Assembly: GCF_035594765.1 (NCBI RefSeq)
Contig: NW_026943818.1
Coordinates: 31,307,559 to 31,371,558, forward strand
Direction of reading: 5' to 3'
DNA length: 64,000 nucleotides
Source: Anolis carolinensis
Lineage: Eukaryota
The notes beneath the pieces were generated by a model that saw only the letters and a list, made by a program, of their open reading frames with translations, did not search any database and was not told the DNA's origin. The translations under genes were made by a program, and so were the position numbers. This document shows positions 11,262 through 12,377 of the stretch, piece after piece (the first letter of the stretch is position 1; the number at the start of each line of letters is the position of its first letter).

Positions 11262-11299
<38 letters not shown>

Positions 11300-12024
11300 C
11301 AACACAACGTCGTTGTATGGCACAGCAAACAAGATGGATATGCTGGATTTCGTTTCACAAAACCACAAGTCGAACACTTCCCAAGTGTCTAGGACTGTGT
11401 GATGTATTTTCTGATGATGTGTGCAGATCCCAGTAGGGTGGCCTTTTGCAGTTGGCAGATGGTGATTTTGTCAATGTCTATTGTTTCCAAATGCCGGCTG
11501 AGATCTTTTGGCACAGCACCCAGTGTGCCCATCACCACCGGGACCACCTGCACTGGTTTCTGCCAGAGTCTTTGAAGTTCAATCTTGAGGTCCTGAGAGC
11601 GGCTGAGTTTTTCCTGTTGTTTTTCTTCAATGCGACTGTCACCTGGGATGGCGACATCAATGATCCAAACCTTTTTCCTTTCCACAACTGTGATGTCTGG
11701 TGTGTTGTGTTCCAGAACTTTGTCAGTCTGGATTCGGAAGTCCCACAGTATCTTTGCGTGCTCATTTTCCAATACTTTTGCAGGTTTGTGATCCCACCAG
11801 TTCTTTGCTGCTGGGAGGTGGGACTTGAGGCATAAGTTCCAATGGATCATTTGGGCCACACAGTTATGCCTCTGTTTGTAGTCTGTCTGTGCGATTTTCT
11901 TACAGCAGCTGAGGATATGATCAATGGTTTCGTCGGTTTCCTTGCACAGTCTGCATTTTGGGTCATCAGCTGATTTTTCAATCTTGGCCTTAATTGCATT
12001 TGTTCTGATGGCTTGCTCCTGGGC
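11262..12024 (-). mobile_element. 3' end of a Dong/R4-clade (RLE-type) non-LTR retrotransposon
   Basis: ORF 11389-12024 has a CCHC knuckle (CRLCKETDETIDHILSCC), RHN, and restriction-like endonuclease motifs (TPDI..IIDVAIP..K), then a 3' UTR and a (TAA)n tail. Confidence 0.85.
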
Positions 12025-12026
12025 CT

Positions 12027-12377
12027 CAGGTGCCACCTTGCCCCCCCCCGCAGGTGCCACCTTGACGTGGTGGGGGGGCTTAGCTGCTCCAATGATGACT
12101 GAGGGCTGTGCTGGCGGTAGTGTAACTACCGGCAGGTCCAACCAAGCCAGAGAGGCCTCAGCTGAGGAGCACAACCAAGAGCACCTAACCCATTAGCATT
12201 ATGGAGAATCAAACCCAAACGAAGTCTATACTGGCTCGGTCGTCGCCCAGGATAAAAAGGACCGCGGTGGATGCGGCTGATTCTGGACATCCATCGACAA
12301 GTGGGCTACGGAATCATCAAAACCCAAATGAACAGTCACAGAAGCGGCAGAAATATACAATGCCAGAAAACCGCACA

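Follow-up and report, generated by a model that had tools for sequence, protein, structure and literature searches.

A k-turn in the 5' leader of an Anolis retrotransposon is predicted to be a side arm of an HDV-like nested pseudoknot that starts at the first base of the element

The 5' leader of a retrotransposon copy in Anolis carolinensis carries letters resembling the terminus of a box C/D snoRNA, and the question arises what such a structure does in front of a reading frame. The window analyzed is a stretch of 64,000 nucleotides (contig NW_026943818.1). Within it, a terminal stem TGCTCC (12085–12090)/GGAGCA (12166–12171) adjoins a bulge AAT (12091–12093), box C ATGATGA (12092–12098), and box D CTGA (12162–12165). 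Further inside are the stems CTGAGG (12099–12104)/CCTCAG (12156–12161) and CTGG (12111–12114)/CCAG (12147–12150) and a hairpin at 12115–12131; CCACC (12057–12061) and GGTGG (12069–12073) lie upstream, and the ATG of the element is at 12201. All stems, boxes, and hairpins named in an earlier sequence-only reading were found in place, as was the bulge, beyond what is expected by chance: boxes C and D with a closing stem of at least 6 bp are found once in the 64-kb window and in 1 of 100 block shuffles. The isolated segment 12083–12173 folds into the claimed stems (z −2.25).

According to the comparisons described below, the k-turn is one side arm (P4) of an HDV-like nested pseudoknot deduced at 12043–12186, starting at base 1 of the element. 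From 12043, the order of the parts is P1 (C7), the 5' strand of P2, P3, a 7-base loop, P3, P1 (G7), two P1.1 partners, P4, J4/2, and the 3' strand of P2 (Table 1). In a model blind to pseudoknots, the 148-base fold is not unusually stable (z −1.04). The energy model prefers a 5-bp CCACC/GGTGG hairpin, which competes with the pseudoknot reading. This hairpin had been proposed from the letters, which are indeed present, but its conserved part is the 3-bp P3, and the rest belongs to P2 and P1; the 5-bp extension of P3 is broken in some relatives (the L301 cluster and L184).

Table 1. Features of the retrotransposon copy and of the predicted fold (window positions).
Feature	Positions	Strand	Basis
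TAA microsatellite, element 3' junction (target and tail)	11267..11298	-	L094 likewise ends in TAA repeats
Element 3' 726 bases (L094 2937–3662): zinc knuckle, presumed restriction-like endonuclease, 3' UTR	11299..12024	-	blastn 97.7%; translation
Inversion junction: 14-base duplicate of 12051–12064 and two extra C	12027..12042	+	sequence reading
P1 5' strand (C7); element base 1; predicted cut 5' of C12043	12043..12049	+	copy alignments; covariation
P2 5' strand, pairs with 12179 and 12181–12186	12052..12058	+	compensatory changes across clusters
P3 12059–12061/12069–12071; L3 12062–12068 = U20, U21, G22, A23, C24, G25, U26 (HDV numbering)	12059..12071	+	outer P3 pair covaries A-U/G-C; loop letters preset by search patterns
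P1 3' strand (G7)	12072..12078	+	covariation, folding
Putative P1.1 partners: C12079 with G12064, U12080 opposite U12063	12079..12080	+	preset by pattern in most sets; phage L495 has A22-U38
P4 arm: C stem 12085–12090/12166–12171, bulge 12091–12093, G.A, A.G, U.U, G-C, distal junction and hairpin	12085..12171	+	reading, clusters, folding
J4/2: C12175 at HDV C75 place, A12178 at A78 place	12174..12178	+	phage members, unselected: C 52/57, A 55/57
P2 3' strand, one bulged base A12180	12179..12186	+	compensatory changes across clusters
First 60 codons of element ORF, cut off by inversion	12201..12380	+	ORF vs. full-length copies
TTA microsatellite, other junction	12383..12433	+	direct reading

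The element was characterized in the 1.85-Gb genome, where the stretch 12040–12375 gave 2,097 first-look candidates; the 40 that were scored are at least 99% alike. The full-length copy L094 (3662 bases) is flanked on both sides by TAA repeats and matches an Anolis carolinensis entry at 99% identity. It contains a single ORF starting at the same ATG (1137 aa in full-length copies), which encodes a reverse transcriptase (RT), a C-terminal zinc knuckle, and an endonuclease, presumably of the restriction-like type, as its motif was recognized by eye. The nearest solved protein structures are R2 proteins, and no named R4 or Dong reference was among the matches obtained. With one ORF, RT and C-terminal restriction-like endonuclease domains, and a TAA target, the element has the make-up of the R4/Dong clade, and it is classified here as R4/Dong-type by anatomy, target, and motifs.

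As for the copy in the window, its last 726 bases lie on the minus strand (Table 1) ahead of bases 1–340 at 12043–12382 on the plus strand. It is a twin-primed, 5'-inverted, dead copy, which cannot make the protein; the inversion cuts off the ORF, and the letters of the fold are intact. Inversion is frequent in the family: among 47 copies that keep the 5' end, 19 are 5'-inverted (8 of 18 in the unranked subset). The 5' piece stops at about base 340 in 16 of the 19 inverted copies, at an internal AATTAT stretch matching the TAA target, and element base ~340 is likely a twin-priming hot spot. According to one review, inversions were reported only for LINE-1, SVA, and processed pseudogenes (PMC4859970), and no paper on inversion in Dong was found in a literature search. 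The window also contains five more fragments of the element (632–901, 17354–17391, 17868–17953, 19557–19651, and 27792–27887), four of them short 3'-end pieces, and, at 32448–35654, a 1068-codon open frame with a LEM domain near its end.

The first base of the element was assessed using the 47 parsed family copies, namely, 29 of 30 loci from the similarity search (one missed the pattern) and 18 of 19 family loci from the pattern search (one was a duplicate). The alignment starts at base 1 (12043), behind TAA repeats, in 27 of the 28 non-inverted copies and at base 2 in the remaining copy. The element and the fold therefore begin 8 bases before position 12051, where the sequence-only reading had placed the start; the fold ends at 12186, 14 bases before the ATG instead of the 30 proposed. 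The C-led pyrimidine run has exactly 7 bases in 21 of these copies, 6 in one, and 8–13 in six. The leader is also covered by contigs from four presumed-RNA runs, and in two of them TAA repeats precede 12043; a contig gives no information on where a transcript begins. From the AUG of box C, a frame of 34 codons (window 12092–12196) runs to a stop 4 bases before the main ATG; the corresponding frames in 24 loci range from 3 to 84 codons with no common frame or length, and a conserved upstream ORF was rejected on this ground.

Relatives of the fold were searched for by patterns. In the Anolis genome, the tight pattern was found at 1,105 places and the core-only pattern at no fewer than 1,380, against 0 for the control in both cases. 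The matches comprise the R4/Dong-type family, a family followed by an AP-type endonuclease, which we take to be BovB-like, and a non-coding repeat of about 390 bases. In this repeat, likely a non-autonomous element, the fold again stands at the start, and the k-turn is of the A.G type (L068, L069, L071, L077, L081–L083, L087–L090, L107, and L108); in its copy L097 an endonuclease fragment lies about 560 bases downstream. A metagenome scan added at least 116 loci; most are animal-type repeats, and behind some of them lie pieces of an endonuclease or RT. The whole fold could be parsed in 119 of 160 unique matches. At a threshold of 78% identity, these group into 18 clusters, of which about four seem to be damaged members of other clusters.

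The strands of P1 and P2 vary between these animal clusters, including the BovB/RTE leaders, and their pairing is kept. Covariation, which the sequence-only reading had named as a check, was observed for P1 and P2; full boxes C and D together are confined to this lizard family among the 18 clusters. When C-stem strands were swapped between clusters, pairing was 5.31 of 7 instead of 6.06 (maximum 5.89 in 1000); the effect is small since the stems are related, and covariation support for this stem is weak. The copies become alike from the first base of P1 onward: among the 33 copies of an unrelated cluster of invertebrate type, the majority base accounts for 30–39% at −8 to −1 and for 94–100% at +1 to +7, and in the Anolis R4 family for 31–62% upstream and 94–100% at +1 to +7. 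In addition, the Anolis R4 leader shares 80–102 identical columns of about 147, distal P4 included, with six other leaders, which suggests that the leader has been exchanged between RTE and R4 lineages. The resemblance to the 5' block of RTE-clade elements that had been proposed earlier holds in that the leader is common to RTE-type elements, but the host element here is R4/Dong-type, not RTE. RTE 5' UTRs are described as sharing sequence with a coral R4, in a block further inside the UTR (PMC5786205).

The standard HDV-like descriptor consists of G1, a CC/GG P1.1, U20, C24, and G25 in L3, and C-N-R-A in J4/2 (PMC6326823). The Anolis leader shows the order P1-P2-P3-L3-P3-P1-P1.1-P4-J4/2-P2 with covarying P1 and P2 and a P1 of 6–7 bp whose first base coincides with the RNA 5' end, as judged from the non-inverted copies (27/28) and the boundary profiles. 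U20, C24, and G25 correspond to U12062, C12066, and G12067, letters preset by the patterns in relatives, and J4/2 has the C and the constrained A just before P2, in agreement with C-N-R-A. The core itself is reversed: C1-G37 takes the place of a +1 G paired with a pyrimidine, and G22-C38 with a U.U takes the place of the C-G pairs of P1.1. An Rfam search, named as a check by the sequence-only reading, gave no match in the window at gathering scores. Around the site, nothing credible emerged when E-values of up to 10 were allowed, and no HDV-type model matched. A C. briggsae HDV variant with U-1, C1, and a P1.1 of U:A and C:U has a cleavage rate of 9.3 per min, which the C57U change abolishes, and active HDV variants carry P1.1 U:A plus U:U or C:U (PMC13635239); G at +1 is therefore not required of the wider HDV-like family.

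The core pattern was also found in viral contigs, initially at 4 and then at more than 120 loci, where the k-turn pattern gave 1 match. Among 97 unique phage matches, 73 have all seven P1 pairs; when the partners were swapped, the number was 6.1 (at most 16 over 500 rounds). Fifty-seven phage members combine a 7/7 P1 with a P2 of at least 6 bp; C occupies the C75 place in 52 of them and A the A78 place in 55, and the five bases before P2 were not used in the phage pattern or in scoring. Their base −1 is U in 30, A in 23, C in 4, and G in 0. In 24 equally spaced members, chosen for having at least 6/7 P1 pairs, pairing holds in 97.9% of cells and 58 double changes occur, above all 500 shuffles and slid registers, with double changes in six of the seven P1 pairs. 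In 21 of 26 phage clusters, only 2–5 bases separate P1.1 from J4/2, which means no P4 and no k-turn. A 7/7 P1 was also present in 8 of 17 GTDB matches. The Rfam HDV family gave no match for 24 phage loci at the gathering and E-value thresholds.

The P1.1 pair 22–38 shows a double change in one phage member (A22-U38, L495) among the matches listed; where other P1.1 pairs were sought in C+1 members, the matches listed were largely theta-like with a 6-bp P1. Two matches with U22-A38 were obtained, and both were rejected as lacking the fold. Sisters with G+1, a pyrimidine at 37, and the same loop start no more than 5 bases from a tRNA 3' end in 14 of 15 loci, which represent about two independent cases, and theta ribozymes of phages likewise adjoin tRNA 3' ends (PMC10879173). 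None of the 88 C+1 phage members lies at a tRNA end. A large theta-like group (L468–L588) has a 6-bp P1 and U.U in P1.1, with many members directly behind tRNAs. The minimal phage member L114:1-339 follows a RAGATH-15 RNA (Rfam) at a distance of about 27 bases, and L120, L128, L144, and L178 look alike. A minimal C+1 member (L443) was noted in the assembly of a Jordarchaeia archaeon, with a terminator-like stretch on one side and a start codon on the other.

As for the k-turn, the arm has a C stem, a 3-base bulge, G.A at 1b.1n, A.G (or A.U) at 2b.2n, and an NC stem. The bulged strand was preset in the pattern, so its invariance is no evidence. On the strand outside the pattern, 1n is A in 16 of the 18 animal clusters, and the 1b.1n G.A thus bears out the k-turn identity proposed earlier; 2b.2n is A.G in 12 and A.U in 4, 3b.3n is U.U in 5, C.A in 4, C-G in 4, A.G in 3, and other in 2, and 4b-4n is C-G in 13 and G-C in 2. 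A loose k-turn pattern gave mostly noise in the genome. Full boxes C and D together occur in 1 of the 18 clusters, that of the Anolis R4/Dong-type family alone. Judging from these comparisons, the k-turn is what is conserved, not a snoRNA terminus. The combination of U:U and G:C impairs ion-induced k-turn folding even with a −1 C:G, and a 4b:4n C:G favours folding (PMC5689011; PMC5061560). By these rules, the k-turn of the Anolis R4 family should depend on an L7Ae-type protein, and those of most sisters less so; binding of SNU13 to it is plausible.

In another view, in line with the first option of the sequence-only reading, the leader imitates the terminus of a box C/D snoRNA and would thereby recruit SNU13, NOP56/58, and fibrillarin for stability or nucleolar localisation. 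Box C is present in 46 of 47 family copies and box D in 45 of 47, which says little, as the copies are about 99% alike; the U:U with G:C of this family also matches the human box C/D signature (PMC5689011). Against this, both boxes are confined to one cluster, so that mimicry fails as a general reading, and 3b.3n and 4b-4n vary. The k-turn stem is internal, starting 42 bases after the RNA 5' end, the window has no Rfam snoRNA match above threshold, and the phage core does without P4 or k-turn. Mimicry as the point of the structure is consequently very unlikely. The other option of the sequence-only reading, a 5'-processing ribozyme, fared better: the fold covaries and stands at element ends, and the k-turn sits in an arm of what is probably such a ribozyme.

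Self-cleavage of the HDV-like fold at base 1, which would free the retrotransposon RNA from a read-through transcript, is considered likely on the basis of these sequence comparisons. Transcripts running through the microsatellite would fold the pseudoknot and be cut 5' of C12043, with C12175 as the putative general acid. The product would be an RNA with an uncapped 5'-OH end that the fold protects, and translation could proceed cap-free from the AUG 14 bases behind P2. The RT would copy to the C+1 end and sometimes slip on the C run, and the k-turn would bend P4 and may bind SNU13. A host protein of the L7Ae family (SNU13/15.5K) may bind the k-turn, help P4 to kink, and tune folding, stability, or translation; this could go either way. 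Such a protein would not be needed for the chemistry, to judge from the phage members, whose core exists without P4 or k-turn.

For cleavage count the G+1 sisters at tRNA ends, the fast C1 variant, and the retained C at the catalytic position. On the other side, G1 and a CC/GG P1.1 are missing, and G22-C38 and the loop were preset by the patterns. An internal promoter, too, can produce precise 5' ends. The same fold might act without cutting, as a barrier to 5' exonucleases or as a platform for translation or packaging, with the 5' end produced by an internal promoter or by trimming to P1. The departure of C+1 and G22-C38 from the standard core and the absence of C+1 members from tRNA ends speak for this. 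It is also kept alive by R2, in which HDV-type folds protect the 5' end of the template RNA and activity varies widely among ribozymes (PMC11331408). However, the catalytic-position C is kept in 52 of 57 phage members and in all parsed animal clusters (whose parse required it), a C1 variant cleaves fast (PMC13635239), and the G+1 sisters sit where only cleavage makes sense, which leaves the non-cutting fold unlikely. Still another reading is that the block is conserved as DNA, as an internal promoter or factor site, and that the RNA pairings are incidental. A DNA-level role of conserved RTE 5' UTR sequence has been suggested (PMC5786205), and the central 12 letters are nearly fixed; but P1 and P2 change their sequences freely while keeping long-range pairing, and the same core occurs in phage and prokaryote genomes, so this reading is most improbable.

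If self-cleavage by the fold is correct, it would account for how RTE/BovB and Anolis R4 elements form their 5' ends with no promoter, and for the failure of the standard G1, CC/GG search motif to detect their leaders. A broader proposal, viewed as rather doubtful, is that a reversed-core delta-type ribozyme is a mobile module of phages and of R4/Dong and RTE/BovB leaders, whose animal k-turn lets an L7Ae-family protein gate cleavage or cap-free translation; this would make it a protein-switched natural ribozyme and the protein a host factor for BovB-type elements. RTE elements are under development as gene-insertion tools (PMC13708176), for which the 5' module matters. The conserved P4 k-turn offers a direct test of control of a retrotransposon ribozyme by a host RNA-binding protein, with the P4-less phage members as the control.

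Ribozymes at retrotransposon 5' ends are already known and have been published for R2, R4, Dong, and RTE (PMC6765202, PMC5786205, PMC3774820). In a literature search, no k-turn was found in an HDV-like fold, nor in BovB or Anolis elements, and two studies may hold members: Ruminski 2011, said to describe HDV-like ribozymes at non-LTR 5' ends, and Weinberg et al. 2015, reportedly the source of the C. briggsae and Ackermannviridae HDV variants. The HDV-like ribozymes of non-LTR elements (Dong, R4, R2, RTE, and L1Tc) resemble the Anolis fold in the exact 5' junction, 7-bp P1, 3-bp P3, 7-base L3, J4/2 C, and variable P4 (PMC3774820). The closest case is Bombyx mori Dong, of the same clade and TAA target, which self-cleaves at its TAA junction, the 5' end; it starts with G after the TAA repeats, whereas the Anolis element has C+1 and G22-C38 with U.U in P1.1 (PMC3774820).

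The box C/D snoRNA and U4 snRNA k-turns have in common with this arm the 3-base bulge and G.A and A.G pairs, beside which U:U and G:C lie in the Anolis family (PMC5061560, PMC5689011). Unlike in a box C/D snoRNA, the k-turn here is an internal arm of a larger fold, without guide or C'/D' boxes, and the box identity is lost in the sisters. Theta ribozymes have the same size and layout as the minimal phage members, and the G+1 members found here also abut tRNA 3' ends; the theta rows have G1 and CC/GG, in contrast to the C+1 members, which are not at tRNAs (PMC10879173). Among the theta sequences in supplementary file 6 of that paper, none has this L3, and the L3 7-mer occurs once, in P2. Finally, the HDV variants of C. 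briggsae and Ackermannviridae, compared by description, share with the Anolis leader a P1.1 of one Watson–Crick pair plus a pyrimidine mismatch and a varied P4, and C. briggsae also C+1 and U-1; their P1.1 pair is U:A and their P4 motif an E-loop, whereas the Anolis leader has G:C and a k-turn (PMC13635239).
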